From the NCBI GenBank assembly GCA_009783205.1, contig WRHO01000005.1, forward strand, positions 5,886 to 69,885: 64,000 bases of DNA, written 5' to 3'. Shown here piece by piece: positions 43,582 through 64,000 of the stretch. The notes beneath the pieces are model-generated. The model made no database searches. It had not been told where the DNA came from and saw nothing but the letters and a program-made list of their open reading frames with translations. The translations under genes and the position numbers were made by a program. This stretch comes from Oscillospiraceae bacterium. Its GTDB lineage: Bacteria > Bacillota > Clostridia > Oscillospirales > Ruminococcaceae. Numbering within the stretch: the stretch's first letter is position 1; each line of letters opens with the position of its first letter.

Positions 43582-43603
43582 GTGTATAATAGAGGTGACT
43601 TTT

Positions 43604-44233: not shown

Positions 44234-44266
44234 CAATATTAATAAAACAGAGGGAGAAATTATCAA

Positions 44267-46778: not shown

Positions 46779-48422
46779 ATGGAAGATTCGAGAATTTACT
46801 TACTTTTAGAAGAAATTGCAAATGAAATCAAATCCATTGAAAAGAAGAATCGCGAGCTTTACACCTCTGCAATTGATGTAGAAGATGAATCGGTTTCGAT
46901 AAAGGTTCAAGCGGAATCCTTTGCAACGCTCAGAAGGATGCGCGGGCTTAAATCCGCAATGGAGGTGTTTAAGTCCGAGCTCGAAAAAAGCGGAATCTTA
47001 AAAGGTTCTTCGGGCGTTTATATAAGTAATGAACACGGTTCAATCGGGTTTGGCGATACAAAAAAGACACAACCCGAAGCCGTGAGCGAACCCGCGCCTA
47101 AAATAAACACATATGAGGAATTTGAATACACACCCGAAGCAAAGCCCGCAACACCTCCCGGTGACCTTATAGAAAATCCCGTTAATTTTTACGAGTTGAA
47201 TGCGGAACCCGATTTTAACCCCGACTTTAACTCCGATTTTAACGATGAAGAGAGCGAGCCGTTGCCCGATTATATCGCGGCGGAAATTGAGAATGTCGGC
47301 GATATAATTAACGAGCTGAATAAAAGCATGGACGAGGGAAACGACGACGGTATTTCGGACGACGATTTCGCCGATTTGGTGAAGGTGTCCCTCGACAGTC
47401 TTGAGTTTGAACCCGAATTTGAGTTTGGGGTTCAAAAGGAACAGGAGCAGGAGCCGAAAACTCAAGCACAGGTATTCCCGCAAATTCAACCCGATGCAGA
47501 AGCGACAAGGGAAGCCGTTAATATAACCGAGGATTCGATTGAGTCACTCGAGGCGGTAATAGACACCGTCGAAGGCGCGCTCGAGGCAATTGAAGAGGAT
47601 AATCAAAACGAGGTAGAAAACAGCATTGAGGCCGCGCTCGGACAGTTGGGCGAATTTGGGCCGCGTGAGCTTCCGCGCGAAGAAAAGCCGCCCGTAACGC
47701 CGCCGACATTTGAACCGGTTTCTACGCCGCAACCGCGCCCCGATGTAATCCCGATTATCCCCGAGCCACAGGCGGCCGCGCCGACGTTTGAGCCGGTTTC
47801 AACGCCACAGCCGCCCGTAACGCCGCCGACATTTGAACCCGTTTCAACGCCACAGCCGCGCCCCGAGACAATACCGGTTATACCCGAACCGACTATACCG
47901 GAATTTAATGTACCGGAGTTTAGCACGCCCGAATTTTCGGAGCCTGCGTTTTCGCCACCCGAGGTTCAAATTCCGGAAATTCCCGCGCTTGATGATATTT
48001 CAAAGTTGACCGATAACGCAACCGGCGTTTCCGAAGCGGAAGATGACGATTTTTCGGGATTCACCGTTTCCGTTCCGGAGGTCGGGATATACAACAACAG
48101 AGTACCCGCCGGATTTGTTATGTTCGGGAGGCGTGTTGAGGTTCGCGATTGGTCGGATATGCTCGTAAAGGTTTGTGAGATACTTATTTTGAAAAATCCT
48201 TATACCGTGGCACAGTTTGATAAATACCACGATTTGAACCCGAGCGGAAATATTTATTTCAGCTATAATCGAACCGATATAAAGGATTCTCCGAGGAAGC
48301 TTTCTAACGGGCTGTGGATTGAACTGACGCGCACCAACGATGATGTCGTAATGTTATGCAAAAAATTGCTCGAGCTTTGCGGTTACCCGAGAAGCGATAT
48401 CGAAATTGAGTTTAAGGATTAG
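46779..48422 (+). CDS. hypothetical protein: coiled N-terminus, acidic and Pro-rich repeat linker, conserved-looking C-terminal globular domain
   Basis: 547 aa. Contains three copies of PTFEPVSTPQP(R)P. The C-terminal ~110 aa (VPAGFVMFGRRVEVRDWSDMLVKV...) is not low-complexity. No family recognised. Confidence 0.65.
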   Translation: MEDSRIYLLLEEIANEIKSIEKKNRELYTSAIDVEDESVSIKVQAESFATLRRMRGLKSAMEVFKSELEKSGILKGSSGVYISNEHGSIGFGDTKKTQPEAVSEPAPKINTYEEFEYTPEAKPATPPGDLIENPVNFYELNAEPDFNPDFNSDFNDEESEPLPDYIAAEIENVGDIINELNKSMDEGNDDGISDDDFADLVKVSLDSLEFEPEFEFGVQKEQEQEPKTQAQVFPQIQPDAEATREAVNITEDSIESLEAVIDTVEGALEAIEEDNQNEVENSIEAALGQLGEFGPRELPREEKPPVTPPTFEPVSTPQPRPDVIPIIPEPQAAAPTFEPVSTPQPPVTPPTFEPVSTPQPRPETIPVIPEPTIPEFNVPEFSTPEFSEPAFSPPEVQIPEIPALDDISKLTDNATGVSEAEDDDFSGFTVSVPEVGIYNNRVPAGFVMFGRRVEVRDWSDMLVKVCEILILKNPYTVAQFDKYHDLNPSGNIYFSYNRTDIKDSPRKLSNGLWIELTRTNDDVVMLCKKLLELCGYPRSDIEIEFKD

Positions 48423-48465
48423 CCTACAAGAGCTGAGCAAATAAAAGCCAAAAAGAGGTGATAGT

Positions 48466-49950
48466 ATGAAATCGGCGAAAAGCTTATCTATCATAGGAAT
48501 AGATTTTGGTACAACCAATACCGCCGTAGTCCGCATTGTACAAGATGACGGCGGTCGAATTCATACCGAGTATTTGGGCGAAAACGGGGTCGGGCCTTTT
48601 GCATCCGTTATAGCTATTCCTAAGGAAGGCGGAAAGCTTGTTTTCGGGAGAGAGGTTCGCGAACGAAGGCTCGAGCTTTCCGATACGCATTACATTATAT
48701 CCTCGCTCAAGACATACATAGGCTCGGACAAGGAGATTGTCTCCGGAAAAAATCGCTATTCGGGCGAGGACGTCACCTGTGCTTTTTTAAAATATCTGAG
48801 AAAAAATATACAAAAGAACTACAAACTTGATATTAAAGACGCGGCTTTGGCTTTTCCTGTCGATTTTTCGGCAAAAGCGAGACGCGCACTTAAAAGAGCC
48901 GCCGAAAAAGCGGGAATACGCCTTTCGGGGTTTTCTGTGGAATCTACCGCGGCTTATATAGCAAATCGCAATAATGAAGAAATATACAAGGCGTATCGAA
49001 GGGTGATGATAATAGACTGGGGCGGGGGGACTCTCGATATAAGCGTATTGGATTTACAGGGGACGAGGGTTTATGAAAACTCGGTTTACGGCGAAAGAAT
49101 CGGCGGAGACGACATAGATTTGGAGATAGCATATCGTATGCACGCGCGATTGTCCGCAAATTATGAGGTCGATTTAAGCTTTGACGAGATGGACGCGGGG
49201 AATAAGGATAAACTCATTTCCGCCTGTGAAAAAGCTAAGATAGGCTTCTCGTTCAGCGAGGAGGACGCCGTTATTGCCCTCAAAAAATACGGGCCGTTCG
49301 GCGATGCAGAGGTTACCCTTTCTTATTCGACATTTAAAGATATAGTTATACCTATAATAAAATCAAAGGCGTTAAAAGCAATAAGCAACGCCATGAAATC
49401 CGCACAGGTAAGCGCGTCGGGAATGGATGCGGTAATAATGGCGGGTGGAAGCTCCGGACTTAAGCCTTTTGCACACGCGGTAGCAAATATATTCGGGAGC
49501 GACAAGATTATACTCCCCGAGAACACGGCTTGGTCGGTAGCGGCGGGCGTCGCGCTCTTGACCGCAACCGAAGGCGAATATATGCTCAACGACGATTTGG
49601 GGGTTTTAATGTCGGACGGAACGGTTTATCCCGTTTTCAAAAAGAATAACGATTGTGTAGGGAGTAAAGCGGGGCCTATTAATTTCTCACTTACCGAGGA
49701 CACCCAAAACGCTCACTTTATATTCACGAACAAGGACAACACAATTGTTTACGGAAAGCTTAATATAAACGCAAAAGGTTTTTTACAGGAAAATATGCAG
49801 CTCGCCGCAAAAATTGACCAAGACCAAACCGCAACCGTATTTGTCAGAAACCGATATATGGGCGAGGATTATAATAAGAAAATCGAGATTAACAGGTTGA
49901 CGTTCTATTATGATTTAGCCGGATTACCGGAGGAAGCAGATGAATTCTAA
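48466..49950 (+). CDS. Hsp70-family ATPase lacking a canonical substrate-binding lid
   Basis: Phosphate-1 IGIDFGTTNTAV, phosphate-2 IIDWGGGTLDISVL and adenosine motif VIMAGGSSGLKPF. Only ~110 aa follow the nucleotide-binding domain. Confidence 0.85.
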   Translation: MKSAKSLSIIGIDFGTTNTAVVRIVQDDGGRIHTEYLGENGVGPFASVIAIPKEGGKLVFGREVRERRLELSDTHYIISSLKTYIGSDKEIVSGKNRYSGEDVTCAFLKYLRKNIQKNYKLDIKDAALAFPVDFSAKARRALKRAAEKAGIRLSGFSVESTAAYIANRNNEEIYKAYRRVMIIDWGGGTLDISVLDLQGTRVYENSVYGERIGGDDIDLEIAYRMHARLSANYEVDLSFDEMDAGNKDKLISACEKAKIGFSFSEEDAVIALKKYGPFGDAEVTLSYSTFKDIVIPIIKSKALKAISNAMKSAQVSASGMDAVIMAGGSSGLKPFAHAVANIFGSDKIILPENTAWSVAAGVALLTATEGEYMLNDDLGVLMSDGTVYPVFKKNNDCVGSKAGPINFSLTEDTQNAHFIFTNKDNTIVYGKLNINAKGFLQENMQLAAKIDQDQTATVFVRNRYMGEDYNKKIEINRLTFYYDLAGLPEEADEF

Positions 49951-51454
49951 TATAACAATCGCGCCGAATATATATGTTCGCTCGTCCGTAAATATTCAAG
50001 ATGACGACGAATTTGTAAAAAAGGTTTACGGTCATAAAGCGTTAAATATTTTAAAGTCACAATTCTCGAAGAATTACTCGTCAAAGCTTACCCGCGCCCA
50101 AATAGAAGAGATGAAACAAAACGTCATATGTCGTCACGGGAAAACGCGGGAATACGCTTACGGAATAGCGTTACAGGACGGCGATAAAATTGTTTGGTCG
50201 TGCCGCTGTGAGCATACCGACTGTTACGCATATGATAAGTGTATGAGTCTCCCTAACGCAATGAAGATTAAAAGGGGCGGCTTATCGGCGGAGGAAACGG
50301 ACAAAGACGGCTACGGCTTTGAAAATGAACAAGACGATGTGTTTGAACCCCCGCACGTTTCGGTCGTGCTTCCGATTTTAAATGAAGTGCTTAAAGGTGA
50401 CGATATGCAGGTGAAAAACGTGATACTCGCCGAAAACTTCGGAGTCGGCCCCGAATTTGACAATAAAAGGGTTTTGGTAATCTGTGAAACCCCTTGTGAA
50501 TTGGGGTATCTCTCTACGCTTTTATATAAGAATAGTGTTAAACACAGAACGCTTAAGTCGGAGGGGTATACGCTCCACCGTCGAATTGCCGATGTTTTTT
50601 GGGATTATTGTAAGGACACAATAGACAGAGATGCGTTCTTTAATCGCTGCATTGTTCGTTTGGGCGAATCCGACGCGGAGCTTTCGGCGTTTTACAACGC
50701 TTTGTTCAAGCTGTGCGGCGATACCGAAAACGATGTTTTGCAAATATCTAAATTGGCGGCGGCTCTCGATGAAGCACCACAGTTGATTTCTAAATGCGTG
50801 TTGAATATGGACGGGCGGTCTGAAGTCTTTCCGGTCACCGTGTCCGTTCTCGAAACGCTTAACGTAAAAGACGAGTATGATGAGGTTTATCTTCTCGAGG
50901 GGGAAAAGGTATCGGTCATGTCGTCCGCTTTAAGCGACCTCTTCGGCTCTCCGCCCGTGATTATTCAGAAAGAAACAAAGGCGGGGTGGTTATTTAACAA
51001 AAGCCCGTTGGGAAGACCCTACAGAATTAGTCAGGATAATTATAAAGGGGGACGGGGACAGCATTGTCTCAATGTAGAACTCGGACTTTGGTGGGATATA
51101 GACGGGAAAAGCTTTTTAAACGACCATATGGGGGACGCAATCCGCCTACAGCTTTATATAGCCGAAAAAATCAAAACGGGCGATGAGCTGACCGTCGAAA
51201 AGAACACGGATACGGGCGGCTATTGGTTTTATCACAACGGAAACATTCTCGGCGAAATACCCTCCGCGCTCATAAGAGAGGTTAGGGCTATCGAAGGCTT
51301 CCCCGACGGGTTCATGGGGTTCGAGGGGATTTATGTACGCAATATCGTAACCTGTATTTCCGATAAAGATGATTCGACGCTTCCGGCGAGGTTTAAGGAT
51401 TCGCGGGTTTGGCTCGGCTTAGACATTACCGGTTATGCAAAAGTTCTAATTTAA
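49940..51454 (+). CDS. hypothetical protein with Cys/His cluster, translationally coupled to the Hsp70-like gene
   Basis: 504 aa. Overlaps the upstream gene by 11 nt, with GGAGG 6 nt before the ATG. Cys/His cluster CRHGKT...WSCRCEHTDCYAYDKC. No family recognised. Confidence 0.65.
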   Translation: MNSNITIAPNIYVRSSVNIQDDDEFVKKVYGHKALNILKSQFSKNYSSKLTRAQIEEMKQNVICRHGKTREYAYGIALQDGDKIVWSCRCEHTDCYAYDKCMSLPNAMKIKRGGLSAEETDKDGYGFENEQDDVFEPPHVSVVLPILNEVLKGDDMQVKNVILAENFGVGPEFDNKRVLVICETPCELGYLSTLLYKNSVKHRTLKSEGYTLHRRIADVFWDYCKDTIDRDAFFNRCIVRLGESDAELSAFYNALFKLCGDTENDVLQISKLAAALDEAPQLISKCVLNMDGRSEVFPVTVSVLETLNVKDEYDEVYLLEGEKVSVMSSALSDLFGSPPVIIQKETKAGWLFNKSPLGRPYRISQDNYKGGRGQHCLNVELGLWWDIDGKSFLNDHMGDAIRLQLYIAEKIKTGDELTVEKNTDTGGYWFYHNGNILGEIPSALIREVRAIEGFPDGFMGFEGIYVRNIVTCISDKDDSTLPARFKDSRVWLGLDITGYAKVLI

Positions 51455-51547
51455 TATTTTTTAAAATATATTTTATTGTTGATATTGACAACCTTGACAT
51501 TATATGTTATTATAAAATTGAATTTGTATAGGGGACGCTTTTTAATT

Positions 51548-54500
51548 ATGATAATTATGAAAAATATGAATAAGGTTAAATCGTTTAAAAGAATCGTTTC
51601 TGTGGTTTTAGCGGGGGTTATTTTAACAACCTCCGGTATCGCGGGTTCAGACAATGTTTTTTCGTCTAAAGCCGCTTCATCGCGTAATCCCGACGATTTT
51701 CAAAGAATGTTGGATGAAGGAATGGAGCCGCAGACGGGGATAATGAGCGGTGCTATCCGTACCGACCTGTATCAGTATTACATAGGCGAACACGGAGACA
51801 ACCCCCGTCCCTCAAAAGAAATCGTAATAGATATGGCAAAATATACCGAAACCCGCCCCGACGAGGAGCTGGGTATAAAGCCCGTTTTCGAGGTGAAGAA
51901 AATTGACGCCGATAAATCGGACGGACAAAAAGCGGAGGATAAAGGCGACTGTCTCGTTTGGAAAAACGATTTGGGCGAGTTTGATTTTGAATTTGACGTA
52001 GCGGAGGCGGGGCTTTATAATCTTGAATTTTTATATCTGCCCGGGCAACCCGAGGACGGAAAGAATAATGCTGTTGAAATATCGCTCAAGCTTAACGGGG
52101 ATTATCCTTTTTCGGCGACCCGCGCTTTAGAGCTTGACAAATATTGGCAGAATAACGGCGTAATAGAAAAGATAAGGGGTCATGAACAGCTTCCTTTACA
52201 GGCGCAACGCAATATGTGGATTACATATCGCGTTAAGGATAAGGAAGGGTTGTTTAATAATCCCTATTTCTTTAATCTGAAAAAGGGAAAAAATGTAATA
52301 ACAATTTGCGGAGTAAAGGTCGGCGGAATCGCGTTTAAATCAATGACCTTCAAGAACTATCCCGAATTGCCGGCTTATGCGGACGTTAAACCCACCGCGG
52401 AGCAGATTAACGCCACACCTATGCTCAACGATAACGGAATAGGGAAAAACGATATTGATTCTACGACTATCCTCTTAAACGGACAAACCCCTTATTGGCG
52501 TTCGTCGCTCGAGTTGGGGCCGACCGCAGACAGAACCACATATTTGGTGAGTCCGAGTCACCCCGTTCATATGCGGTATAACACAATGGGCGGCAACAGC
52601 ACATGGCGCAAAGCGGGACAGGCGGCAACGTGGGAGTTTCTTGTCCCCGCGGACGGATATTACCGCTTTTCTGCAAAAATACGCCAAAACGGGCTGAGGG
52701 GGTTTAGGTCAAATCGGCGAGTTTTAATCAACGGTGAGGTTCCCGTTAAGGAGTTTGAGGCACAGAAATTCAGCTACAGCTCGAAATGGCAACAGCAGAG
52801 CTTTGTTGACGATAACGGCGAGGATATATATGTCTTTCTTGAAGAAGGGAGAAACTATATAACGCTCGAGGTTGTTCCCGGGGAAATCGGCGAATCTGTA
52901 CAAAGACTCGGTGATTACCTTTACACGCTTAACTATTTGTACCGACGCATACTTATGGTTGTCGGCCCGAACCCCGACGAATACAACGATTATCGGATTG
53001 ACGAACAAATCCCCGAGTTAATCCCCGAGTTTAAACGAATTATACAGGCGTTGCGCGATGAAAAAAAGACGGTTGAAAAGTATTCAATCGGAGGAGGCTC
53101 GGAAGCGGCGACCTTAGAAACATTAGCGGTTATTCTTGACCGATGCGTTAGAAATCCCGACAGAATCCCGCTCAGAATGAAAAGCCTTAAGGACAATATT
53201 TCGTCATTGTCGGCGTGGATAAGCGAGGCGAGTCGTCAACCGCTTGAGTTGGATTATGTTGAGATTGCGACCGTTCATGAGGAGTTCGGAAACGCTAAAT
53301 CGAGCTTTTTTTCACAACTGTTGTTCTTGTGGAACGGGTTTCTCGGCTCCTTCTTTGAGGATTTCACTAAAATCGACGACGAAGGCGATACAGATAACCT
53401 TACCGTATGGGTGGGCTTAGGGCGCGACCAAGCACTTGTATTAAAAAATCTTTTAGGCGATTATAACAGGGATAACGAAAGAAAATTAGCGGTTTCGTTA
53501 AATCTTGTGCAGGGCGGTATTCTTGAGGCGTCGTTAGCGGGCAAGGGCCCCGAGGTAGCGTTGTTCATAGGGGGCGACTTCCCCGTACAGCTCGCCGCGA
53601 GAGACATGACGGTTGATATATCGAAATTCGACGATTATCAAGAGATTGTAGATTCGAGGTTTGTCGAGTCTTTGCCCACCTTCTTTACTTATTTGGACGG
53701 CGTTTACGGCTTACCCTTGACACAGGTTTTCCCGATGATGTTTTACCGCGAGGACATACTGCACGATTTGGGAATAGAGCCGCCCGACACATGGGACGAG
53801 TTTATTGAGGCGATTGCGGTACTCAACCGCGCATTCCTCGAGATAGGGCTTCTCCCGCCGCTCAACCCCGCCGCATTGGGTAGTACGATTTTTGAGCCGG
53901 GCGAACCGTTCACAATGCTACAGCTTCAAACGGGGCAAAACTTCTACAGAATGAACGAGGACGGCTTGTACGACAGAACAACCTTTGATACCGAGGCGAG
54001 CATAGACGCCTTCACAACATGGACTAAATTTTACACGGTGTATCAATTCGAACAAACCTACGACCCGTTTACGCGTTTCAGAACGGGACAAATGCCGATT
54101 GTTATAATGCCGTATCCTTTCTTCAATCAGCTCAACGCCGCCGCGCCGGAAATACGCGGGTTGTGGAATTTCCGTCATGTGCCGGGAACGGAGCGGATTG
54201 ATGAAAACGGGGAGCCTTTTGTTGACATATCGGCTTCGAGCGGCGCGACCTGCGGCTTGATTTTCAAAAAAGCCCCCGACCATCAAGGGGCGTGGGAGTT
54301 TTTAAAATGGCTGACGTCGGACGATATTCAATCGCGGTTCGGTCAGAATATGGAGTCGATGTTAGGCCCGCTCGGAAGATATGAAACCGCAAATAAAAAC
54401 GCGCTCGAGAATTTAGCGTGGACGGCGGCACAGCTCAATCGTCTTACAACGCAAATGGACGCTTTGGTTGAGATTCCTATGATTCCCGCAAACTATTCGG

Positions 54501-54649
54501 TAACGCGGCATATAAAAAATGCGTTTAGGGCGGTGGTAAACGATAACTACATTCCGCGATTTGCGTTAAACAGCTATAACCGCGACATTAACTCCGAAAT
54601 AATCCGAAAGATTAAAGAATTAGACAGTCACGCTTGGGGCGGCGAATGA
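51548..54649 (+). CDS. membrane-anchored giant protein: N-terminal beta-rich (CBM-like) modules fused to a family-1 extracellular solute-binding domain
   Basis: Start moved to the ATG at 51548, ahead of the N-terminal TM (VVLAGVILTTSGIAG). The C-terminal ~450 aa (LTVWVGLGRDQALVLKNLL...) resemble sugar ABC binding proteins. A permease pair follows. Confidence 0.7.
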   Translation: MIIMKNMNKVKSFKRIVSVVLAGVILTTSGIAGSDNVFSSKAASSRNPDDFQRMLDEGMEPQTGIMSGAIRTDLYQYYIGEHGDNPRPSKEIVIDMAKYTETRPDEELGIKPVFEVKKIDADKSDGQKAEDKGDCLVWKNDLGEFDFEFDVAEAGLYNLEFLYLPGQPEDGKNNAVEISLKLNGDYPFSATRALELDKYWQNNGVIEKIRGHEQLPLQAQRNMWITYRVKDKEGLFNNPYFFNLKKGKNVITICGVKVGGIAFKSMTFKNYPELPAYADVKPTAEQINATPMLNDNGIGKNDIDSTTILLNGQTPYWRSSLELGPTADRTTYLVSPSHPVHMRYNTMGGNSTWRKAGQAATWEFLVPADGYYRFSAKIRQNGLRGFRSNRRVLINGEVPVKEFEAQKFSYSSKWQQQSFVDDNGEDIYVFLEEGRNYITLEVVPGEIGESVQRLGDYLYTLNYLYRRILMVVGPNPDEYNDYRIDEQIPELIPEFKRIIQALRDEKKTVEKYSIGGGSEAATLETLAVILDRCVRNPDRIPLRMKSLKDNISSLSAWISEASRQPLELDYVEIATVHEEFGNAKSSFFSQLLFLWNGFLGSFFEDFTKIDDEGDTDNLTVWVGLGRDQALVLKNLLGDYNRDNERKLAVSLNLVQGGILEASLAGKGPEVALFIGGDFPVQLAARDMTVDISKFDDYQEIVDSRFVESLPTFFTYLDGVYGLPLTQVFPMMFYREDILHDLGIEPPDTWDEFIEAIAVLNRAFLEIGLLPPLNPAALGSTIFEPGEPFTMLQLQTGQNFYRMNEDGLYDRTTFDTEASIDAFTTWTKFYTVYQFEQTYDPFTRFRTGQMPIVIMPYPFFNQLNAAAPEIRGLWNFRHVPGTERIDENGEPFVDISASSGATCGLIFKKAPDHQGAWEFLKWLTSDDIQSRFGQNMESMLGPLGRYETANKNALENLAWTAAQLNRLTTQMDALVEIPMIPANYSVTRHIKNAFRAVVNDNYIPRFALNSYNRDINSEIIRKIKELDSHAWGGE

Positions 54650-54691
54650 ACAATTTGAAACTTATTAATTATCTAAAAAGGGGGGGACGTT

Positions 54692-55645
54692 TTGGATAAC
54701 ACTACTCCGGAAAATAAGCCGGTAAAACGTATTGAGGACAGTAAGGTCAGATACACCTTAAGGGAAATGAGGCGTAATAAAAACGCATACGCAATGCTCT
54801 TTCCGTATTTCTTCCTGTTTATATTTTTGACGGCAATACCCGTAATAATGGCTTTACCGATAGGGTTTACGAATTTTAATATGGTAAACTTCCCGCCAAA
54901 ATTTGTGGGGATTGAAAACTTTCAAACACTTTTCATGGAAGATGAAGTATTTTTACTTTCGATTCAGAACACACTCGTTTTCGCGTTGATAACGGGCCCG
55001 CTCAGTTATGTTTTATGCTTTTTGCTCGCCTGGTTCATTAATCAGCTTCCCGGGCATTTAAAAACAATCTTTACCTTTATTTTCTATGCGCCGACGCTCG
55101 CCGGTAATATCTACGCAACCTGGCAGCTTGTGTTTTCCGGCGACGCTTACGGACTCGCCAATGCTTATCTTATGGATATGGGAATACTTAATCGTTCGTA
55201 TGAATGGCTAATTGACGGCGACACGATTTTGGGGGTCGTAATAATTGTACAGCTTTGGATTTCGCTCGGGGCGGGATTCTTGGCAATCCGCGCCGGGTTT
55301 CAGGGGATTCCGCGTGACAGATATGAGGCGGGCGCGATTGAGGGGATAAAAACCCGCGCACAGGAGCTTTTGTACATTACTATTCCGGCGATGGGTCCCC
55401 AATTACTTTTCGCCGCCGTTATGCAGATTACCGCGTCATTTGCGGCGGGCGACGTTTCGAGATTTTTAACGGCGTTCCCGACCACCGACTACCGAGCGCA
55501 CTCAATAATGAACCACGCCTTTGACTACGGGTCTTTGAGGTTTGAAATGGGTTATGCGTCGGCGATATGCTTTATATTGTTCTTCTCGATGTTATTAGCA
55601 AACTGGGGAATAAAGAAAGTCCTCGGAAAATATTTAGATGCCTGA
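54692..55645 (+). CDS. ABC sugar-type permease (MalF/UgpA-like)
   Basis: 6 TM. EAA loop RDRYEAGAIEGIKTRAQELLYITIP. TTG start after AGGGGGGGA. Confidence 0.85.
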   Translation: MDNTTPENKPVKRIEDSKVRYTLREMRRNKNAYAMLFPYFFLFIFLTAIPVIMALPIGFTNFNMVNFPPKFVGIENFQTLFMEDEVFLLSIQNTLVFALITGPLSYVLCFLLAWFINQLPGHLKTIFTFIFYAPTLAGNIYATWQLVFSGDAYGLANAYLMDMGILNRSYEWLIDGDTILGVVIIVQLWISLGAGFLAIRAGFQGIPRDRYEAGAIEGIKTRAQELLYITIPAMGPQLLFAAVMQITASFAAGDVSRFLTAFPTTDYRAHSIMNHAFDYGSLRFEMGYASAICFILFFSMLLANWGIKKVLGKYLDA

Positions 55646-55677
55646 CTAAGGAAGGCAGTTCCTAAGGAGTGTAGTAC

Positions 55678-56541
55678 ATGAAATTACGTGTAAGCAAGAA
55701 GAAGCGGCTGTCCGGTTCAATCGGCGGAGATATAGCGATTTTCCTGATGTTAGCTATAATCGGGTTATTCATGCTGTTTCCGATTTATCTGTCGGTTGTT
55801 CAGTCGTTGAAGCCGCCGGAGGAATTCTTTATATTCCCGCCGCGAATGGTTCCTATTAATCCTACCTCACAAAATTTTGACGAATTGTTTAGGGCTGCGG
55901 GGGCGATGTGGGTTCCGTTTTCGCGTTACCTTTTTAACTCAATCTTTGTAACGGTTGTCGTTACCGTATCACAAATAATTTTTTCATCTATGGCGGCTTA
56001 TGTATTATCAAAGGTAAAAGCCCCGGGCGTGCGGTTACTCAACCGGTCGATTGAAATTGCGTTGCTCTTCCAATCAACGGTAACATTTATAATGGTTTAT
56101 ATGGTAATGGCAAAAGCGGGAATGATTGACACGTATTTTGCGATTACGCTACCGTTTATAGCGACGCCCATGTCGTTATTCTTCATGAGACAGTTTATGG
56201 GGCAAATCCCCGATTCGATGATAGAAGCCGCACACGTTGACGGCGCGGGACATTTCAGAACCTGTTGGCAGATTGTTATGCCTAACTGTAAGCCGGCATG
56301 GATAACCCTTATAATATTCGCGTTTACCGCGGCTTGGCAGATAACCGGTTGGTCGTACATTTTCTCCGAGACGTTGAAGCCTCTGCCTACCGTGCTTGAA
56401 CAAATTCGACTTTCGGGTATAGCCCGTGCGGGTGTCGGCGCGGCGGCGTCGGTATTCATTATGACCCCGCCCATGTTATTGTTCGTATTCTGCCAAAGTA
56501 ATGTTATCGAAACCATGGCACATTCCGGGTTAAAGGAATAG
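55678..56541 (+). CDS. ABC sugar-type permease (MalG/UgpE-like)
   Basis: EAA loop IPDSMIEAAHVDGAGHFRTCWQIVMP. Confidence 0.85.
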   Translation: MKLRVSKKKRLSGSIGGDIAIFLMLAIIGLFMLFPIYLSVVQSLKPPEEFFIFPPRMVPINPTSQNFDELFRAAGAMWVPFSRYLFNSIFVTVVVTVSQIIFSSMAAYVLSKVKAPGVRLLNRSIEIALLFQSTVTFIMVYMVMAKAGMIDTYFAITLPFIATPMSLFFMRQFMGQIPDSMIEAAHVDGAGHFRTCWQIVMPNCKPAWITLIIFAFTAAWQITGWSYIFSETLKPLPTVLEQIRLSGIARAGVGAAASVFIMTPPMLLFVFCQSNVIETMAHSGLKE

Positions 56542-56552
56542 GGGAGGGGATT

Positions 56553-58151
56553 ATGTTTAATAAAAAGCTGACTAAAACGGTTTTGGCGGTTGTTATAATC
56601 GCCGTAATGTTGAGTTTTATGTCATCGTTTATGTTGACGGCGAACGAACCGTGGGTTCCTTATAATTACGACTGGTGGTTGGAAACATACCCGGTTCAAA
56701 GCGGGTATGTCGTTGACCGGGTTATTACATCTAACGAGCTGAAGCTTTCGGTTCCGCTTAAGTCGCCAAAGGACGTGTTCATTTATGAGGACGCAAAGGG
56801 CGAGGTGTCGGTTTACATTGTGGATACCGATAATCACAGGATAATCATAACCGATTTAGAGTTTGATAAAGTCCGCGAATTAAGTACATTTACCTACGGC
56901 GAGGATTATAGGGTTGAGAATTTTGTACCCACGCCGTCATCTGTCGGAGCCGGTATCAAATATGACGATATCGAGGCTTACTGGGACGAGGTTGCAAAAA
57001 TCGGTACAAAGACGACGTTAAGGAATCCGTCGGGAATATATGTTCAGGATTATCACGGTGAAACGAGAATTTATATTGCCGACAACAATAACGACCGCGT
57101 TCTCGCCTGTGACAAGGACGGCAACATTTGGATGGAGTATAAACGCCCGGGGAGCGAGGTGTTTGACCCGAACGCGTCATTCCGTCCGACAAAGGTTTTA
57201 GCGGACAATGCGGGAAACGTATATGTCTGTCTCACGACAATTGCCAAGGGCGCGCTCATGTTTAATGAGGAAGGGGATTTTCGGGGATTTTACGGTGCAA
57301 ATAAGCTCGAAGAGACCTCAACGGCGGTTTTGCACGCATTTTTAAGACTTTTCATGTCCCGCGAATTTATGCAAAATCTGCGGGGGAACTCGGCGGTAGA
57401 ATTTTCCGGCTTAACAATAGACAGTGACCAGTTTATCTATACCGTTACCGCCTCTCGGAGCGTCGGCACCGATATTGTTAAGAAAATCAATCCGTCGGGG
57501 CAAAATGTTTACGAAAAAGAGGGGAAAAGCGACTGGACATGGGGCGCGTGGATACAGCCTTATGTATACGGAAGAACTTTCATGTCTACCTTAGTAGACA
57601 TAACGGTTGACGATAAAGGCGACCTCTTCCTATTAGACAGCACGTCGGGACAGGTGTTCCAGTATGACCAGGACGGGTATCTTATATTCACCTTTGGCGG
57701 AAAGGGTGAACAAAAAGGATTGTTCACCGCACCCACCTCGGTTGAGGATTATGATTCGAAAATATATGTTCTCGACTCAACAAAAAATTCGCTCACAATA
57801 TTTAAGCCGTCAGAATTTGGCGAGCTCGTTATAGAGGCAATGGGGCTTTTTAATCGCGGACGTTATACCGAATCGCTCAAGCCTTGGAGCGAGGTTTTGA
57901 AGCGTGACGCAAATTTCTATATGGCTTATGTGGGAATGGGTAACGCAAAGCTCAGCACGGGCGATTTTAACGAAGCCCTTGATTATTTTCATATGCACTC
58001 TTATTTCGGATATAATTTGGCGTTTAAGGATTTAAGGGTGAATTACATGAGGGATAATTTCGACAGAATGTTACTCATAGTAATTATCGCAATAGTTATT
58101 TTTGCGGGCGCGCATATAGCAATAAAAATCATACGCAAACGGAAAGGATAG
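56553..58151 (+). CDS. NHL-repeat beta-propeller + TPR protein with N- and C-terminal TM anchors
   Basis: Repeated NHL-type strands (VYIVDTDNHRIIITD, IYIADNNNDRVLACDKDGN, LFLLDSTSGQVFQYDQDGY, IYVLDSTKNSLTIF). A TPR-like C-terminus, then a TM and RKRKG. Confidence 0.65.
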   Translation: MFNKKLTKTVLAVVIIAVMLSFMSSFMLTANEPWVPYNYDWWLETYPVQSGYVVDRVITSNELKLSVPLKSPKDVFIYEDAKGEVSVYIVDTDNHRIIITDLEFDKVRELSTFTYGEDYRVENFVPTPSSVGAGIKYDDIEAYWDEVAKIGTKTTLRNPSGIYVQDYHGETRIYIADNNNDRVLACDKDGNIWMEYKRPGSEVFDPNASFRPTKVLADNAGNVYVCLTTIAKGALMFNEEGDFRGFYGANKLEETSTAVLHAFLRLFMSREFMQNLRGNSAVEFSGLTIDSDQFIYTVTASRSVGTDIVKKINPSGQNVYEKEGKSDWTWGAWIQPYVYGRTFMSTLVDITVDDKGDLFLLDSTSGQVFQYDQDGYLIFTFGGKGEQKGLFTAPTSVEDYDSKIYVLDSTKNSLTIFKPSEFGELVIEAMGLFNRGRYTESLKPWSEVLKRDANFYMAYVGMGNAKLSTGDFNEALDYFHMHSYFGYNLAFKDLRVNYMRDNFDRMLLIVIIAIVIFAGAHIAIKIIRKRKG

Positions 58152-58155
58152 TGTT

Positions 58156-58791
58156 ATGGTATATGATTTACATTTACCCGCCTGGAAATGGCCTTTCTAT
58201 GTAGTAAGGCATCCTCTCGAGGGGTTTGAGGATTTACGGTGGAAAAAAGGCTATAACATAAAGGTCGCTTTGGTGATGATTTTGGCGTTTTTTTTGACAA
58301 CCGTTGCACAAGCGCGCATGACGGGGTTTATATTTAACTCGGATTTTGCGAAGGTTTTCAACATAGTCCCTTATTTTTCATCGACGATTCTTTTGTTTTT
58401 AGTATGGGTTCTCGCCAATTGGTCGCTTTGTACGCTCTTTAACGGCGAAGGAACAATGAAAGCCATATTCTGCATGAGTTCATATGCGTTGTTCCCTTAT
58501 ATAGCGTCAATGATTATTTATACCGTCGCCAGCAATATCCTTCTTTGGAGAGAAAGAGGATTTTTAACATTTATTGTTATCTTAGGCATAGCTTGGTCGG
58601 TAGTGATGATGATTTCCGGAATAAAGGCAATACATCAATATTCGGTTCCAAAGACGCTATTAGCGATTATTTTCACGCTCTTGGCTATGGTAATCATATT
58701 GTTCATTGTCGTTTTATTAGTCGCTTTGTTTCAACAAATCTATATTTTCTTTTACACAATATATACGGAATTGCTTTACAGATTCAGTTAG
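58156..58791 (+). CDS. five-TM membrane protein, Yip1-like
   Basis: 211 aa. The topology and size resemble Yip1-domain proteins. The family call is from memory only. Confidence 0.5.
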   Translation: MVYDLHLPAWKWPFYVVRHPLEGFEDLRWKKGYNIKVALVMILAFFLTTVAQARMTGFIFNSDFAKVFNIVPYFSSTILLFLVWVLANWSLCTLFNGEGTMKAIFCMSSYALFPYIASMIIYTVASNILLWRERGFLTFIVILGIAWSVVMMISGIKAIHQYSVPKTLLAIIFTLLAMVIILFIVVLLVALFQQIYIFFYTIYTELLYRFS

Positions 58792-58832
58792 GAATCAATT
58801 AGGAATCGCTATATTCCTTTGGAGGATGGTTT

Positions 58833-61724
58833 ATGTTTAACTTAAAACGAAAGCTTTTAAAGCACAATAAGCTAATCGCGTGGTTCGTTATTTTGTCGGT
58901 ATTTTTCTCGCTCGGGACACAGGCGTGGTCGGAGCAGGGGGACGACAGTGTATCGAGAGATGACGTTTCGGCAACCGATGAAGCAGATGAAGTCGAGGAG
59001 GAGGAAGAGGCGATACCTACCGATTTGCCTTTGCGCGACGAAGACGAGCTTCTCGCTCAAATGGAGCTTTTTGCCGACACAGATGATTTAGAGCTTTTTG
59101 TTCTTGAGAGCTATGAATATATCGGTACGGAAGATGTTCTTACCGAGTTTTATCTCTATGACAAAAACGGAAATTTGGTTGTATTTGAAGAGGGAATGTT
59201 CGAAAACACAGATAACCAAATCCCGATTTTTGACCAAAACGGAGACCCAGTATTAAACGGCGAGGGTGAACAGCTGGTCGAATCATTAGGCTTCTTTAAC
59301 CGCATTGAGCCGGGCGACAGAATACAACCTGCGGAAGAGGACGACGATGTGCAAAATGCCGAGGTTGCCGATAATCAAGAGGGCGACAATGCCGAAGCTG
59401 CCGACAATGATGAAGACGAAGCAGACGATGTAGCCGACGACGATACAGATGATGAAGAAGACGCAAACACCGACGCCGACAATGACGAGGACGGGGGTGA
59501 CGCCGACGAAGATGATACCGCGGTCGCGGCAGTAACGGAAGACGACGACACCGTAACGCGCTTATCATATCGGAGAGATGTCCCCAAAAACGTCAAAAAG
59601 CTTAAAGAAGAAGGCATTTTTGCCGTCCGTGTGAAATCGAGCGGGTATGTTTGGTGGTCAAATCCAATCAACGCCGCACATGACCCTTATGCAAAGCCGT
59701 CACAGGTCAACAGCCTTTCTTCACCCATAGAGTTTATCGCGGGAAACACAAATACCTATTCTACGAACATTTATCGCTCAAACACACAATCTTATGACGG
59801 ACTCTATGTAAACGCAGTGGAAAGCATAGAGAAAATCGACGGCGGCGTTCGTTTTAATTACAATTTCCCTAAAGCGTTCGCGACGCTTGTGATGGAGGTT
59901 GTTCTCGACGGCGAAAGCGTTGTTGTGACTGTTCCGGAGTCGGGCTTGAACGAAACTCGTATTTCCGCAGAACAAGACAGCGATTTGAGTCCGAGCGCAA
60001 TGCTCACGTTATCCTTGTTAAACAGCTTTGGCGCGGCACCCGAAGGCGAGGACGGATATATAGTTGTTGCCGACGGTTCGGGCGCAGTGATTGATTTTGA
60101 TAACGGTAAGATAAATTCTGCACAGTATTCCGGGCAGGTTTATGGAAGAGATTTTGCAATTTCGCAAAAATTCGCCCCCCCCGTAATGCAACAGGTGTAT
60201 TTGCCGGTATACGGAATTGTGCGCGACTCGGGCAATAACGCACTTGTGGCGATTGCGGAAAAGGGCGACGAAAACGCAACAATAAGAGCGGCGGTCTCGA
60301 AACAGGGGTCAAACCTTTCCGCTTTTAACATAGCCTGGTTCGATTTCAGAACGCGGACAACCGATTCCTTTTATATAGGCTCGACCTTTGACGAGCTTTC
60401 CATTTACGAATCGGGAAAAATAAAGACCGGCGACATTGCCGTAAGATATTACCCGCTTTCGGGGAAAAATCTTTCATATGTCGACGTTGCCGATACCTAC
60501 AGAGATTATTTGATTAATATTAAGGATATTTCGGCAAAACCCGAAGCAAACGACCTTTCGTTTTTTGCGACGCTTAACGGCGGGACGGTGAAAACACACT
60601 CTATAGCAGGGTTCCCGTTTAACCTTCAAACCGAAGCCACAACTTACAGTCAGGCACAGAAAATTGTCGAATCGTTAAAGATGAAGGGCGTTGACGATTT
60701 GGTAATAACATATAACGACTTTAATACGGAAAGTATAAAGCGTAAGGTTTCTGACTCTATGAAATATTCAAAGCTTCTCGGAGGGCGGAGCGATTTTGTA
60801 AAGCTTATGGCGGCGGTTAATCAGGGGGGGAGCGTATTGTACCCGAGCGTAGGATTCATGGATTATCAAAAATCGGGCAACGGGTATTCCACCATGCGAC
60901 ACGCGCCGCGCGAGGTGACGCGTTCTCGCGCCGTACAGCAAAAATACGAATTAGCGTTCGGTACGCCCGATAAGCTTCAAAAGGTTTCGGCTATCCTTTC
61001 GCCGTATTATTACAAAAGAGTTTTCGATTCATTAACCGACTCGCTAAAAAAAGAGAATATTAAAACAATTTCGCTCGCCGAGGCGACCACAATGCTTTAC
61101 AGCGATTTTTCAAGAAAGAATCCTTCCGGAAGAGCATATTACAACCGACACGATACCGTTAATGTATTAACCGACGGATTTAAAGCAATTAACGACGCGG
61201 GTGTATCAATACTTGCACAATCGGCAAACGCTTATGCTTTACCGTATGTATCATATATAAGCAACGTACCGATGAGTTCTTCTAATTTTGATATATTCGA
61301 TTATGATATTCCTTTTTATCAAATAGCGGTCAAGGGGTTAATCCCTTGTGCGGTTGAACCGTTTAACGCGAGTTCAAATTTGAAGATAACGACCCTAAAA
61401 GCGTTATCAATTGCCTCCCCGCCGCATTATGAGTTTATTTATGAAAACCCCGGTAATTTTAACGACTCACCTTATAATAAAAAGTTTTATACCGGCTTTG
61501 ACGCTTGGGAGGAACACGCGATTGGAACCTATAAGATGTTTAAGGCGTTAGTCGGAGACATTGCGGGAGAACGAATAGTCGGTCATAAGCGATTATCGGA
61601 CAACGAAACGGAGACGGTTTTTGAGGGGGGGAGGAAAATTTATATAAACCTCAACACCCTTGTGTTAAAAATAGACGATAAAGAAATAGATATAGATTTG
61701 TATTATGAAGGGGGTGTAGCTTAA
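58833..61724 (+). CDS. large extracytoplasmic protein with N-terminal anchor and ~90-aa Asp/Glu-rich linker, unknown function
   Basis: 963 aa. N-terminal TM (LIAWFVILSVFFSL), an acidic low-complexity region at 59330-59560, then a ~700-aa globular region. No family confidently recognised. Confidence 0.65.
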   Translation: MFNLKRKLLKHNKLIAWFVILSVFFSLGTQAWSEQGDDSVSRDDVSATDEADEVEEEEEAIPTDLPLRDEDELLAQMELFADTDDLELFVLESYEYIGTEDVLTEFYLYDKNGNLVVFEEGMFENTDNQIPIFDQNGDPVLNGEGEQLVESLGFFNRIEPGDRIQPAEEDDDVQNAEVADNQEGDNAEAADNDEDEADDVADDDTDDEEDANTDADNDEDGGDADEDDTAVAAVTEDDDTVTRLSYRRDVPKNVKKLKEEGIFAVRVKSSGYVWWSNPINAAHDPYAKPSQVNSLSSPIEFIAGNTNTYSTNIYRSNTQSYDGLYVNAVESIEKIDGGVRFNYNFPKAFATLVMEVVLDGESVVVTVPESGLNETRISAEQDSDLSPSAMLTLSLLNSFGAAPEGEDGYIVVADGSGAVIDFDNGKINSAQYSGQVYGRDFAISQKFAPPVMQQVYLPVYGIVRDSGNNALVAIAEKGDENATIRAAVSKQGSNLSAFNIAWFDFRTRTTDSFYIGSTFDELSIYESGKIKTGDIAVRYYPLSGKNLSYVDVADTYRDYLINIKDISAKPEANDLSFFATLNGGTVKTHSIAGFPFNLQTEATTYSQAQKIVESLKMKGVDDLVITYNDFNTESIKRKVSDSMKYSKLLGGRSDFVKLMAAVNQGGSVLYPSVGFMDYQKSGNGYSTMRHAPREVTRSRAVQQKYELAFGTPDKLQKVSAILSPYYYKRVFDSLTDSLKKENIKTISLAEATTMLYSDFSRKNPSGRAYYNRHDTVNVLTDGFKAINDAGVSILAQSANAYALPYVSYISNVPMSSSNFDIFDYDIPFYQIAVKGLIPCAVEPFNASSNLKITTLKALSIASPPHYEFIYENPGNFNDSPYNKKFYTGFDAWEEHAIGTYKMFKALVGDIAGERIVGHKRLSDNETETVFEGGRKIYINLNTLVLKIDDKEIDIDLYYEGGVA

Positions 61725-62965
61725 TGGAAGACAATAACAAGAAAAACGAAAGTAATACCAAAGAAAAAACCCCCGAGCAATTAAAAGCGATTCAAGAAAA
61801 AAACGAAAAAGCCGAACAAAAACGAAGCGCGTACCGGGCAAAAAGATTAAAGAAACACGAAGCGGATACGGCGAGAGAATTTAAAAAAATTGACAAAGCC
61901 GAGGAAAAAGAAAAATCTAAAACACAAGACCCAACCGTTATCAGAGAGATTGAGCTTCTCGCAATAAAACAGCGTGAGGAGCTAAAGGCGGTATCTGAAC
62001 AGAGGGGGCGCGTAATTGCGAGTTCAACCGGGTCGCGGCTTTCCTATGAACGTAAAAAAGGCTTGTACGGCTACGGCTTCATAAGCATATGGATTATCGG
62101 CGTAATTTTGATATTTATTGGGCCGTTAATCATGTCGATACAATACTCGTTCAGCGAAACGACCTTAGTCAGCAAGGATAACGCCGCAGAATACGGAATG
62201 AAAACTGCGGGGATTCACCTCGAATGGAACGATTTTCGACATTATAAATACGCGCTCACCACCGACGGAAAATTCTCGGTCGGACTTGTGCAGACGTTGG
62301 GCGATATGGTTCCGCAAATAATAATGGTACTAATATTCAGCCTTTTTGTAGCCGTTTTACTTAACCAAAAGTTTAAGGGGCGAACGCTTATGCGGGCGAT
62401 ATTCTTCTTCCCCGTTTTAATTGCGACGGGCCCGGTTATAATGGTTATCAACGGAACAATGTCGGCGCAGGGGGCGACGGGCGACGCGGCACAGTTCTCA
62501 ACAATGTTTCAGGCGGACATGGTAGACGGGTTCATGCGGTTCTTAGGCTTATATAACGTGAGCGAGGAATTTACCACGTTTATCGGAAACGTCACGAGCG
62601 ATATATTTAACCTTCTTTGGAAATCGGGTATTCAGATACTTATTTTCCTCTCGGCGTTACAACAGATTCCGACCTCTGCAAAAGAGGCGGCATCTATGGA
62701 GGGGGCGACGGCTTGGGAATTTTTCTGGAAAATTACCTTCCCGACAATAAGCCCCATGATATTGGCAAATCTTATATACACAATAATAGATACATTCAGC
62801 GATTCAAATAACTTTATAATGCGCCTCGTTATGGCGCAGGTGGGACAGAATCAAAATTTTGGCTACGGCGCGGCAATGGCGTGGATTTACTTCGGAATTA
62901 TCGCGGTCGCTTTGGCTATTGTCGTAGGAATTGTATCGAGATTTATTTTCTATCAGGTTGACTGA
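61724..62965 (+). CDS. ABC sugar-type permease with ~110-aa Lys/Glu-rich N-terminal extension
   Basis: EAA loop IPTSAKEAASMEGATAWEFFWKITFP. The start overlaps the previous stop (TAATG). Confidence 0.8.
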   Translation: MEDNNKKNESNTKEKTPEQLKAIQEKNEKAEQKRSAYRAKRLKKHEADTAREFKKIDKAEEKEKSKTQDPTVIREIELLAIKQREELKAVSEQRGRVIASSTGSRLSYERKKGLYGYGFISIWIIGVILIFIGPLIMSIQYSFSETTLVSKDNAAEYGMKTAGIHLEWNDFRHYKYALTTDGKFSVGLVQTLGDMVPQIIMVLIFSLFVAVLLNQKFKGRTLMRAIFFFPVLIATGPVIMVINGTMSAQGATGDAAQFSTMFQADMVDGFMRFLGLYNVSEEFTTFIGNVTSDIFNLLWKSGIQILIFLSALQQIPTSAKEAASMEGATAWEFFWKITFPTISPMILANLIYTIIDTFSDSNNFIMRLVMAQVGQNQNFGYGAAMAWIYFGIIAVALAIVVGIVSRFIFYQVD

Positions 62966-62999
62966 TTATAAATATAAGGAGAGGGGAGGAAATAAAAAA

Positions 63000-64000
63000 A
63001 TGAACAATAACCCAACCGAAAATATGACCGATTTTGAATATGAACAGTATGCTATAGATTATTATGATGAAAACGGCGAATATCCCGAGGGATATGCCGA
63101 GTATTATCATGCAAAATACGGCGCGTTTCGGACGACGATTTTTAAAACGACCGATGACGCTAAAGAGGAGCTTACAAAAAAGCAGATTAAAGACATTGAC
63201 AAAAAGAATAAAGAAATGCGGAAGCAATACCATGTTTCTAATCTACAGATTTTGAAAAACTACAGGAATTATTCCGAAGCGGAGAAGGAGCATTATCGTT
63301 ATTTATTCGGTAAGCGTATCGCATCTGCGGTTTGGCCGTTTTTCAACTATGTTATTCTTATAGGCTTAGCCTTTGTAATTCTTTATCCTATTCTGTTTAT
63401 GATTACAAACTCAATACGCCCACAATTTGAAACACAAGACCCGTCGACAATGTGGATTCCTAAAACAATAAGGTGGGCGAACTTTACGGAAACCTTGACC
63501 GCGATTCAAGATAAATACGGGCCAAATAGTGAAATACCTTTTTATAAATCCATCTTCTTTAACACCTTTTTTATAAACATAGGTTGTTCAATTGTACAGG
63601 TTGTAACCTGTGCGTTGACGGGGTACGGTTTCGCGAGGTTTAAGTTTAAAGGTCGTAATTTGCTTTTCGGGGTCGTTATACTACAGATGATAGTCCCTAT
63701 TCAAATTATAATTATCCCTTTATTTATGCAGTTTAGGTTTTTCGATTTATTCGGAGTATTTAACGCAATAACGGGCGACTCGATTAATTTGATTAATAAT
63801 CCGATTACAATGTTTATCATGGCGTTTTTTGTCAACGGAATACGCGCGGGTTTGTTTATACTCTTGTTCAGACAGTTTTTCCGCGGACTCCCGAAGGAAC
63901 TCGAGGACGCGGCGTATCTTGACGGTTGCGGTCCGTTTGAGACTTTTATAAGGATAATGGTTCCTAACGCGCTTGTGTCGTTTTTAACAGTATTTATATT
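63000..64000 (+). CDS. ABC sugar-type permease (MalG-like) with ~95-aa Tyr/Glu-rich N-terminal extension; partial, runs off right edge
   Basis: Not in the ORF track because no stop lies in the window. ATG at 63000 after AAGGAGAGGGGAGG. EAA loop LPKELEDAAYLDGCGPFETFIRIMVP. Confidence 0.8.
   Translation, partial: MNNNPTENMTDFEYEQYAIDYYDENGEYPEGYAEYYHAKYGAFRTTIFKTTDDAKEELTKKQIKDIDKKNKEMRKQYHVSNLQILKNYRNYSEAEKEHYRYLFGKRIASAVWPFFNYVILIGLAFVILYPILFMITNSIRPQFETQDPSTMWIPKTIRWANFTETLTAIQDKYGPNSEIPFYKSIFFNTFFINIGCSIVQVVTCALTGYGFARFKFKGRNLLFGVVILQMIVPIQIIIIPLFMQFRFFDLFGVFNAITGDSINLINNPITMFIMAFFVNGIRAGLFILLFRQFFRGLPKELEDAAYLDGCGPFETFIRIMVPNALVSFLTVFI

Follow-up and report, generated by a model that had tools for sequence, protein, structure and literature searches.

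The window analysed here is a stretch of 64,000 nucleotides from contig WRHO01000005.1 of an Oscillospiraceae bacterium (a metagenome-assembled genome), and its right-hand end is occupied by a cassette of eight genes resembling an ATP-binding cassette (ABC) transporter operon, which we numbered g1 to g8 in the 5' to 3' direction and which is the subject of this work. According to the open reading frame listing and translations, the eight genes are co-directional on the + strand, from 51548 to beyond 64000. Their Pfam and NCBIfam content comprises a binding protein, a UgpA/UgpE-like permease pair, an NHL/TPR protein, a Yip1 protein, a DUF5696 protein and a second pair of BPD_transp_1 permeases; NCBIfam holds no model for g1, g5 or g6. 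Positions are those of the window and are obtained by adding 48832 to those of L001, the ENA copy of the contig, which reaches 5 kb past the right end of the window (L numbers denote loci throughout). The features, with transmembrane abbreviated as TM, are:

51485 to 51513, + strand: promoter-like site of sigma-70 type, TTGACA-17 nt-TGnTATTAT (extended TG), 11/12 consensus matches (L001 2653-2681).
51548 to 54649, + strand: g1, membrane-tethered binding protein of 1033 aa; Pfam SBP_bac_8/SBP_bac_1 in the C-terminal third only.
54692 to 55645, + strand: g2, MalF/UgpA-type permease of the first pair, 317 aa, with a short N-terminus and an EAA-like loop EAGAIEG...; NCBIfam UgpA, E 8.5e-11.
55678 to 56541, + strand: g3, MalG/UgpE-type permease of the first pair, 287 aa, EAA loop EAAHVDGAGHFRTCWQIVMP; Pfam BPD_transp_1, UgpE E 2.4e-26.
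56553 to 58151, + strand: g4, bitopic protein of 532 aa with TM helices at both ends; Pfam NHL/SBBP/TPR.
58156 to 58791, + strand: g5, Yip1-family membrane protein of 211 aa with five TM helices; Pfam Yip1, E 4.7e-15.
58833 to 61724, + strand: g6, DUF5696 protein of 963 aa; Pfam PF18952, E 3e-145.
61724 to 62965, + strand: g7, MalF-type permease of the second pair, 413 aa, with a K/E-rich cytoplasmic N-terminal tail of ~118 aa; BPD_transp_1; TAATG overlap with g6.
63000 to 64000 (cut by the window end), + strand: g8, MalG-type permease of the second pair, with a Y/E/K-rich N-terminal tail of ~117 aa and EAA loop DAAYLDGCGPFETFIRIMVP; BPD_transp_1.

The intergenic distances from g1 to g8 are 42, 32, 11, 4, 41, -1 (TAATG) and 34 nt, in accordance with the tight packing (gaps of 4-42 nt and one TAATG) described in a first-pass annotation of this DNA. 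The same annotation had recognized a ~1030-aa anchored protein with a solute-binding domain in its C-terminal third, preceded by extra beta-rich modules resembling carbohydrate-binding modules (CBMs), a MalF/MalG-type pair, an NHL and TPR protein with TM helices at both ends and a five-TM Yip1-like protein, and all of these assignments agree with the profile matches listed above and, for the N-terminal modules, with the structural model presented below. Its start of g1, a TTG at 51476, had to be corrected. The promoter-like site falls within the 93 nt that separate g1 from the gene before it, inside the TTG-started reading frame, and because this near-consensus promoter lies downstream of the TTG we place the start at the ATG at 51548, as called on the ENA contig. 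On the full contig (L001) g8 is 420 aa long and is followed, just past the window, by a bidirectional terminator and convergent DnaC/DnaB-loader-like genes, therefore the operon ends there without an ATPase. Rfam and tRNA scans detected no RNA element in the operon. Public collections contain proteins 100% identical to those encoded here.

Relatives of the cassette were found with a profile of DUF5696 homologues over one-genome-per-species contigs, which yielded at least 578 encoded relatives, and gene order was compared by tblastn with the eight window proteins in the best 80 of these loci, all in Oscillospiraceae/Ruminococcus genomes. Order and strand of g1-g8 were kept in every one of the 80 loci whose contig is long enough, with identities to the window proteins of 58-83% for g2, 44-77% for g5 and 33-53% for g6. 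The eight-gene order persists even at 23-29% g6 identity, in L083 (32% GC), L085 (58% GC), L093 and L095, and was also present in cultured Butyrivibrio fibrisolvens D1 (L096, plasmid pNP243) and Paenibacillus cellulosilyticus KACC 14175 (L097). Each window gene is the best match to its positional counterpart in the relatives, and the accessory trio g4-g6 stands together with both permease pairs in every sufficiently long relative from Oscillospiraceae to Paenibacillus. Since the order is identical across Clostridia and Bacilli and over 32-58% GC, the adjacency is not by chance. It could be argued that two ordinary, independent sugar ABC importers came to lie beside three envelope genes that have nothing to do with them, either by chance or through local rearrangement, and the extra binding proteins that follow the second permease pair in some lineages would fit this, as that pair could be a separate conventional importer. 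This is contradicted not only by the constant order but also by translational coupling (TAATG between g6 and g7, 4 nt between g4 and g5), by a single promoter and a single terminator and by fusions of g4 with g5, so we hold the two-importer explanation to be extremely improbable; chance adjacency of the eight genes is excluded. In relatives the trio carries the RefSeq labels 'NHL repeat-containing protein', 'YIP1 family protein' and 'DUF5696 domain-containing protein', and the first-pass annotation was right about similar gene sets in other Firmicutes. At 50% identity, the DUF5696 family falls into 6272 clusters. As to whether the trio belongs to an already characterised pathway, literature searches (for DUF5696, for Yip1 with ABC or solute-binding and with Ruminococcus, and for the RefSeq product names) returned no publication on DUF5696 or on the gene set.

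The AlphaFold2 (AF2) model of g1 (pLDDT 79.8; residue 1 is the ATG at 51557, so 3 is added for numbering from 51548) has a TM helix at the N-terminus, which is joined through ~40 disordered linker residues to two beta-sandwiches resembling CBM6/35 (~89-266 and 305-439). A helical stalk (442-558) follows, and then a complete solute-binding domain of the oligosaccharide type (563-1026). No lipobox cysteine was found in g1 and the tether is therefore the TM helix. The Pfam match of the binding domain has an E value of 3e-19, its sequence matches in the PDB are sugar binding proteins, and Foldseek placed oligosaccharide binding proteins on top with TM-scores of 0.7-0.8; these proteins bind sophoro-, manno-, malto- and cycloisomalto-oligosaccharides and lacto-N-tetraose. 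For the N-terminal modules, homologues gave weak CBM6, CBM35 and Golvesin_C matches, which reached the Pfam threshold in one homologue. The whole architecture of ~1000 aa is kept full-length among homologues.

Coupling loops of the EAA type are present in all four permeases. Within the window g3 and g8 are 21% and g2 and g7 24% identical, and this low identity, together with the best matches to positional counterparts, indicates that the four-permease layout is ancient and not a recent duplication. The charged extensions of ~100 aa that had been pointed out in the second pair are real here, the first TM helix being at residue 119 of g7 and 118 of g8, but in relatives they range from ~15 to 150 aa and their sequence is not conserved. 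They are lineage-variable disordered tails and no defining feature of the cassette.

In g4 an NHL beta-propeller (~150-420) is followed by TPR repeats (~430-515), both extracytoplasmic by the positive-inside rule, and the PDB matches are TRIM-NHL propellers and consensus TPRs. Only 4 nt separate g4 from g5 in the window, and in three distant lineages the two form a single polypeptide: L085 (702 aa), L093 (743 aa) and Paenibacillus L097 (719 aa). Because of these separate fusions and this spacing, there is strong evidence, drawn from gene architecture, that g4 and g5 act as one membrane unit. As extracytoplasmic NHL propellers and TPRs are found in bacterial sensor proteins, one could also suppose that the system is mainly a sensor, in which g1 and the propeller/TPR protein detect extracellular glycan and signal via the membrane proteins, transport being secondary. 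The disordered cytoplasmic tails of g7 and g8 could then recruit partners, and one of the ATPases of relatives has a MazE/AbrB-like domain. These tails are not conserved, though, the cassette has no kinase, cyclase or DNA-binding output domain, and it has four full permeases with coupling loops, which makes a mainly sensory function very unlikely.

The remaining member of the trio, g6, had been noted as an unexplained protein with a long D/E linker. The linker is real: the D/E-rich stretch at residues 173-235 (window 59349-59537) forms a disordered insertion inside the N-terminal beta-sandwich, occurs only in close relatives of the window, and g6 has 963 aa here versus a median of 784 aa. The protein is not simply unexplained, as its predicted fold is of the type of glycoside hydrolase (GH) families GH129 and GH101. 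The confident AF2 model (pLDDT 86.2, pTM 0.82), built on 71 homologues, has an N-terminal anchor or signal helix, a beta-sandwich N-domain, a (beta/alpha)8 barrel and a C-terminal beta domain. Foldseek against the PDB placed GH129-type enzymes first (ZgGH129 5opq, E 2e-29; NagBb 5wzr, E 1e-28, TM-score 0.72; range of TM-scores for GH129 0.64-0.72), followed by GH101, GH31 and GH36, and profile matches to the same PDB chains are collinear but weak (hidden Markov model E 0.004-0.02). Fragments resembling NagBb carry precomputed PF18952 (DUF5696) matches; the protein search gave frameshifted fragments only, and an intact NagBb (634 aa, with D435 and E478 present) was recovered from metagenome contigs. 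In a profile-profile comparison by hhalign, 155 DUF5696 sequences matched GH129 (NagBb) with 93.5% probability, E 2e-7 and 16% identity. Residues D414 (in PDGSGA), D440, R508, D511, D758, R772, N799, Y801, D825 and N845 are near-invariant in the 155 homologues, and D758, conserved in 97%, aligns 4-8 residues off the NagBb nucleophile D435, in a register that depends on the algorithm and has low confidence. DUF5696 is therefore best regarded as a distinct family resembling GH129 and GH101, for which glycosidase activity is plausible. Two other leads were discarded: matches to designed pentatricopeptide repeats, from a PDB profile search with a larger DUF5696 alignment, were spurious and came from one short helix-strand motif, and an apparent fusion of DUF5696 with a permease in L074 (1059 aa) proved to be two genes with a stop codon between them.

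ATPases were surveyed in 55 Oscillospiraceae-type loci with enough upstream sequence. In 36 of them g1 is immediately preceded, on its own strand, by a pair of ABC ATPase genes (for example L087 8326-9955 and L088 8268-10004), and in L088 and L087 these overlap g1 or lie 45 nt away. These paired ATPases score best against LolD/MacB/FtsE/DevA models and are not MalK-like, and the second of the two carries a MazE/AbrB-like domain (PF04014) at its C-terminus. In Paenibacillus a UgpC-type ATPase takes this place directly upstream of the cassette. Locus L088 shares the upstream synteny of the window (Band_7, Hsp70-like and 493-aa genes), with the two ATPases between that block and g1, which indicates that the ATPase pair was lost or moved in the window's sub-lineage.

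The LolD/MacB/DevA-like ATPases of many relatives could be taken to mean that the cassette exports or assembles a surface polysaccharide, with one or both permease pairs working outward and DUF5696 as a transglycosylase. A Yip1 accessory is known from the YknWXYZ exporter (PMC4887032), and the loss of the canonical acid/base in g6 would be compatible with transglycosylation. Against this, the UgpC-type ATPase adjoining the Paenibacillus cassette is of the importer type, catabolic regulators and hydrolases lie near the cassette in relatives, and neither the window contig nor the loci of relatives have linked glycosyltransferase, flippase or polymerase genes. Permeases of the BPD_transp_1 type with EAA loops, combined with a MalE-like binding protein, point to importers as well, and to our knowledge they occur only in type I ABC importers. 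The first-pass annotation had left import and export of a polymeric substrate side by side; a machine of this general kind is supported by our results, and of its two forms capture and import is favoured, export or assembly having in our opinion only a slight chance of being correct.

The genes flanking the cassette in relatives differ from locus to locus. L095 has a LacI regulator beside the cassette. In Butyrivibrio the neighbours are GH43, a sensor kinase/response regulator and a further two binding proteins. GH95 occurs in L091 and in 11 loci of the Ruminococcus type, and L085 has GH26 together with extra binding proteins. Downstream of the cassette in L083 (14865-19972; 32% GC) lie DUF624, NamZ, GH3, a BcrAD_BadFG-type kinase and a SIS/MurQ-like gene, and this set suggests that the L083 copy handles peptidoglycan-derived sugars containing N-acetylmuramic acid (MurNAc) and N-acetylglucosamine (GlcNAc). 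Judged by their gene content, all of these are catabolic carbohydrate contexts, with substrates that differ. The main rival explanation is that of a housekeeping recovery and re-import of the cell's own envelope glycan fragments (peptidoglycan or a secondary wall polymer) instead of dietary glycans. The NamZ/GH3/kinase/MurQ-like set is one for MurNAc/GlcNAc recycling, the permeases and Yip1 are very strongly conserved, the cassette is usually alone, without partners among carbohydrate-active enzymes (CAZymes), and LolD/FtsE-like ATPases are typical of envelope-related ABC systems. The MurNAc context is confined to one locus, however, the other loci have LacI, GH43, GH95, GH26 or extra oligosaccharide binding proteins, the use of plant or host glycans is the typical setting of CBM6/35-like modules and of a GH129/GH101-like fold, and the diversity of the family is as expected for varied substrates. 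Envelope recycling is therefore regarded by us as unlikely, albeit the most serious of the alternatives.

From these results we consider it reasonably probable that the cassette is a machine for glycan capture, trimming and import, that is, a self-contained and widely conserved ABC carbohydrate-uptake apparatus of Gram-positive bacteria. Through its two CBM6/35-like modules, the tethered g1 would retain a polymer or a large oligosaccharide on the cell surface, and the membrane-anchored, GH129/GH101-like g6 would trim this glycan or strip a decoration from it. Held in the membrane with g5, g4 may be an extracytoplasmic scaffold or an extra binding platform which keeps the parts together. From the solute-binding domain of g1 the products would then reach two distinct translocators of the MalFG type, g2/g3 and g7/g8, between which labour may be divided, and transport would be powered by ATPases encoded elsewhere in the genome, a role that two LolD-like or one UgpC-type ATPase encoded upstream would play in relatives.

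Several observations weigh against the capture-and-import machine. Neither a motif scan nor tblastn searches using the ATPases of relatives detected an ABC ATPase in the window, and none is present in the 5 kb downstream, which confirms and extends the earlier remark that the window lacks one; that remark is refined by the dedicated ATPases of many relatives. Where ATPases do stand beside the cassette, the LolD/MacB/FtsE-like types of the 36 of 55 loci are atypical for sugar importers. The window has neither a regulator nor a classified or classical CAZyme, and the permease identity of 58-83% exceeds what is usual for nutrient-specific importers. In g6, the equivalence of D758 with the nucleophile is ambiguous by several residues (hhalign) and the acid/base Glu478 of NagBb is not conserved in DUF5696, where it aligns to Q796 in a variable column, so g6 could be non-catalytic or of different chemistry. 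In ZgGH129-like enzymes the acid/base Glu is likewise not conserved, and a separate family has been proposed for them (PMC5698469).

A more far-reaching picture can be drawn by analogy, in which the eight proteins and their ATPases would be assembled into a single stable supercomplex on the cell surface, comparable in Gram-positives to the 'utilisome' of Bacteroidetes. In it DUF5696, as a new glycosidase family, would act together with a scaffold of propeller/TPR protein and Yip1, a binding protein bearing CBMs and two non-equivalent translocators, with a LolD-type drive in Oscillospiraceae. We know of no precedent for a LolD-type rather than a MalK-type drive of type I importer permeases, and this picture is offered tentatively, as something possible but doubtful. 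The cassette is widespread, occurring in at least 578 species genomes, among them fibre-degrading gut Clostridia (Oscillospiraceae, Ruminococcus, Butyrivibrio) and soil Paenibacillus. The place of DUF5696 in the GH129/GH101 structural lineage provides a concrete and testable enzymatic hypothesis, possibly a new glycoside hydrolase family, and a fixed combination of ecto-enzyme, propeller/Yip1 scaffold, CBM-bearing binding protein and two translocators would widen the view of how glycan processing and uptake are coupled in Gram-positives. The cultured hosts B. fibrisolvens D1 and P. cellulosilyticus KACC 14175 open the question to experiment.

Some neighbouring features of the window were also recorded. 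The cassette is directly preceded (46779-51454, + strand) by three genes. The first encodes an acidic/proline-rich protein of 547 aa, the second an Hsp70/MreB-like ATPase of 494 aa that lacks a substrate-binding domain, and the third, which overlaps the second by 11 nt, a Cys-rich protein of 504 aa. For two of the three there was no Pfam match, and a PADLOC scan of this trio found nothing. In L088 all three genes likewise stand ahead of the cassette; in L003 and L090 this holds for the Hsp70-like and the Cys-rich gene. Further upstream (43595-45646, + strand) come a membrane protein of 212 aa, whose linker has GGDFD repeats, and then a flotillin-like Band_7/SPFH protein of 459 aa, a pair also found upstream in L088, and at 42667-43581 (+ strand) a CheV-type protein combines a CheW domain with a response-regulator receiver. 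Between 8001 and 10000 the local G+C content is 0.52 versus ~0.43-0.46 elsewhere, and no rRNA or other Rfam family was found there.

Compared with known systems, the cassette is closest in its transport components to carbohydrate uptake transporters of type 1 (CUT1; MalEFGK2, UgpBAEC, MsmEFGK), with which it has in common an oligosaccharide binding domain like that of MalE and permeases of the MalF/MalG type carrying EAA loops; the Paenibacillus copy also has a UgpC-type ATPase directly upstream. In Firmicutes the ATPase of CUT1 importers is often encoded elsewhere. In contrast to CUT1 importers, the cassette has four permease genes (two ancient pairs) instead of two, a TM-anchored binding protein with ~530 extra residues (two CBM-like modules and a helical stalk), three obligatory accessory genes and, in many relatives, two LolD-like ATPases, one of them with a MazE/AbrB-like tail.

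Gram-positive polysaccharide utilisation loci and, by analogy, the SusCD 'utilisome' of Bacteroidetes co-encode surface glycan binding, cleavage and transport, as the cassette probably does, and relatives of the cassette adjoin GH43, GH95, GH26 and LacI or two-component regulators as such loci do. The cassette differs from them in that its core is fixed and self-contained and not modular, without a TonB-dependent transporter or SusD, and in the window the transporter and the GH-like protein are accompanied by neither a regulator nor a classified CAZyme.

A precedent for g5 is YknW of the Bacillus subtilis YknWXYZ system, a Yip1-family membrane protein reported to modulate ABC transporter assembly (PMC4887032), and g5 likewise is a Yip1 domain with about five TM helices in an ABC transporter operon. 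YknW works with an exporter of the MacB/FtsX type and with a membrane-fusion protein, neither of which was found in the cassette (all permeases are BPD_transp_1), whereas g5 partners importer-type BPD_transp_1 permeases and is coupled, in some lineages fused, to an NHL/TPR ectodomain protein.

The closest structural relatives of g6 are the GH129 enzymes NagBb, an alpha-N-acetylgalactosaminidase (PDB 5wzn), and ZgGH129/DagB, a 3,6-anhydro-D-galactosidase (PDB 5opq). With GH129 and GH101 it shares the three-domain architecture of N-terminal beta-sandwich, TIM barrel and C-terminal beta domain. Profile-profile comparison also points to a probable homology with GH129, and the barrel of g6 has a near-invariant Asp close to the putative nucleophile position. 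It differs from GH129 in an identity of 11-16% and in the acid/base Glu of NagBb, which is not conserved, and moreover its strongest motif (PDGSGA...YGRD) lies in the N-domain, it is anchored in the membrane and its gene always stands between transporter genes.

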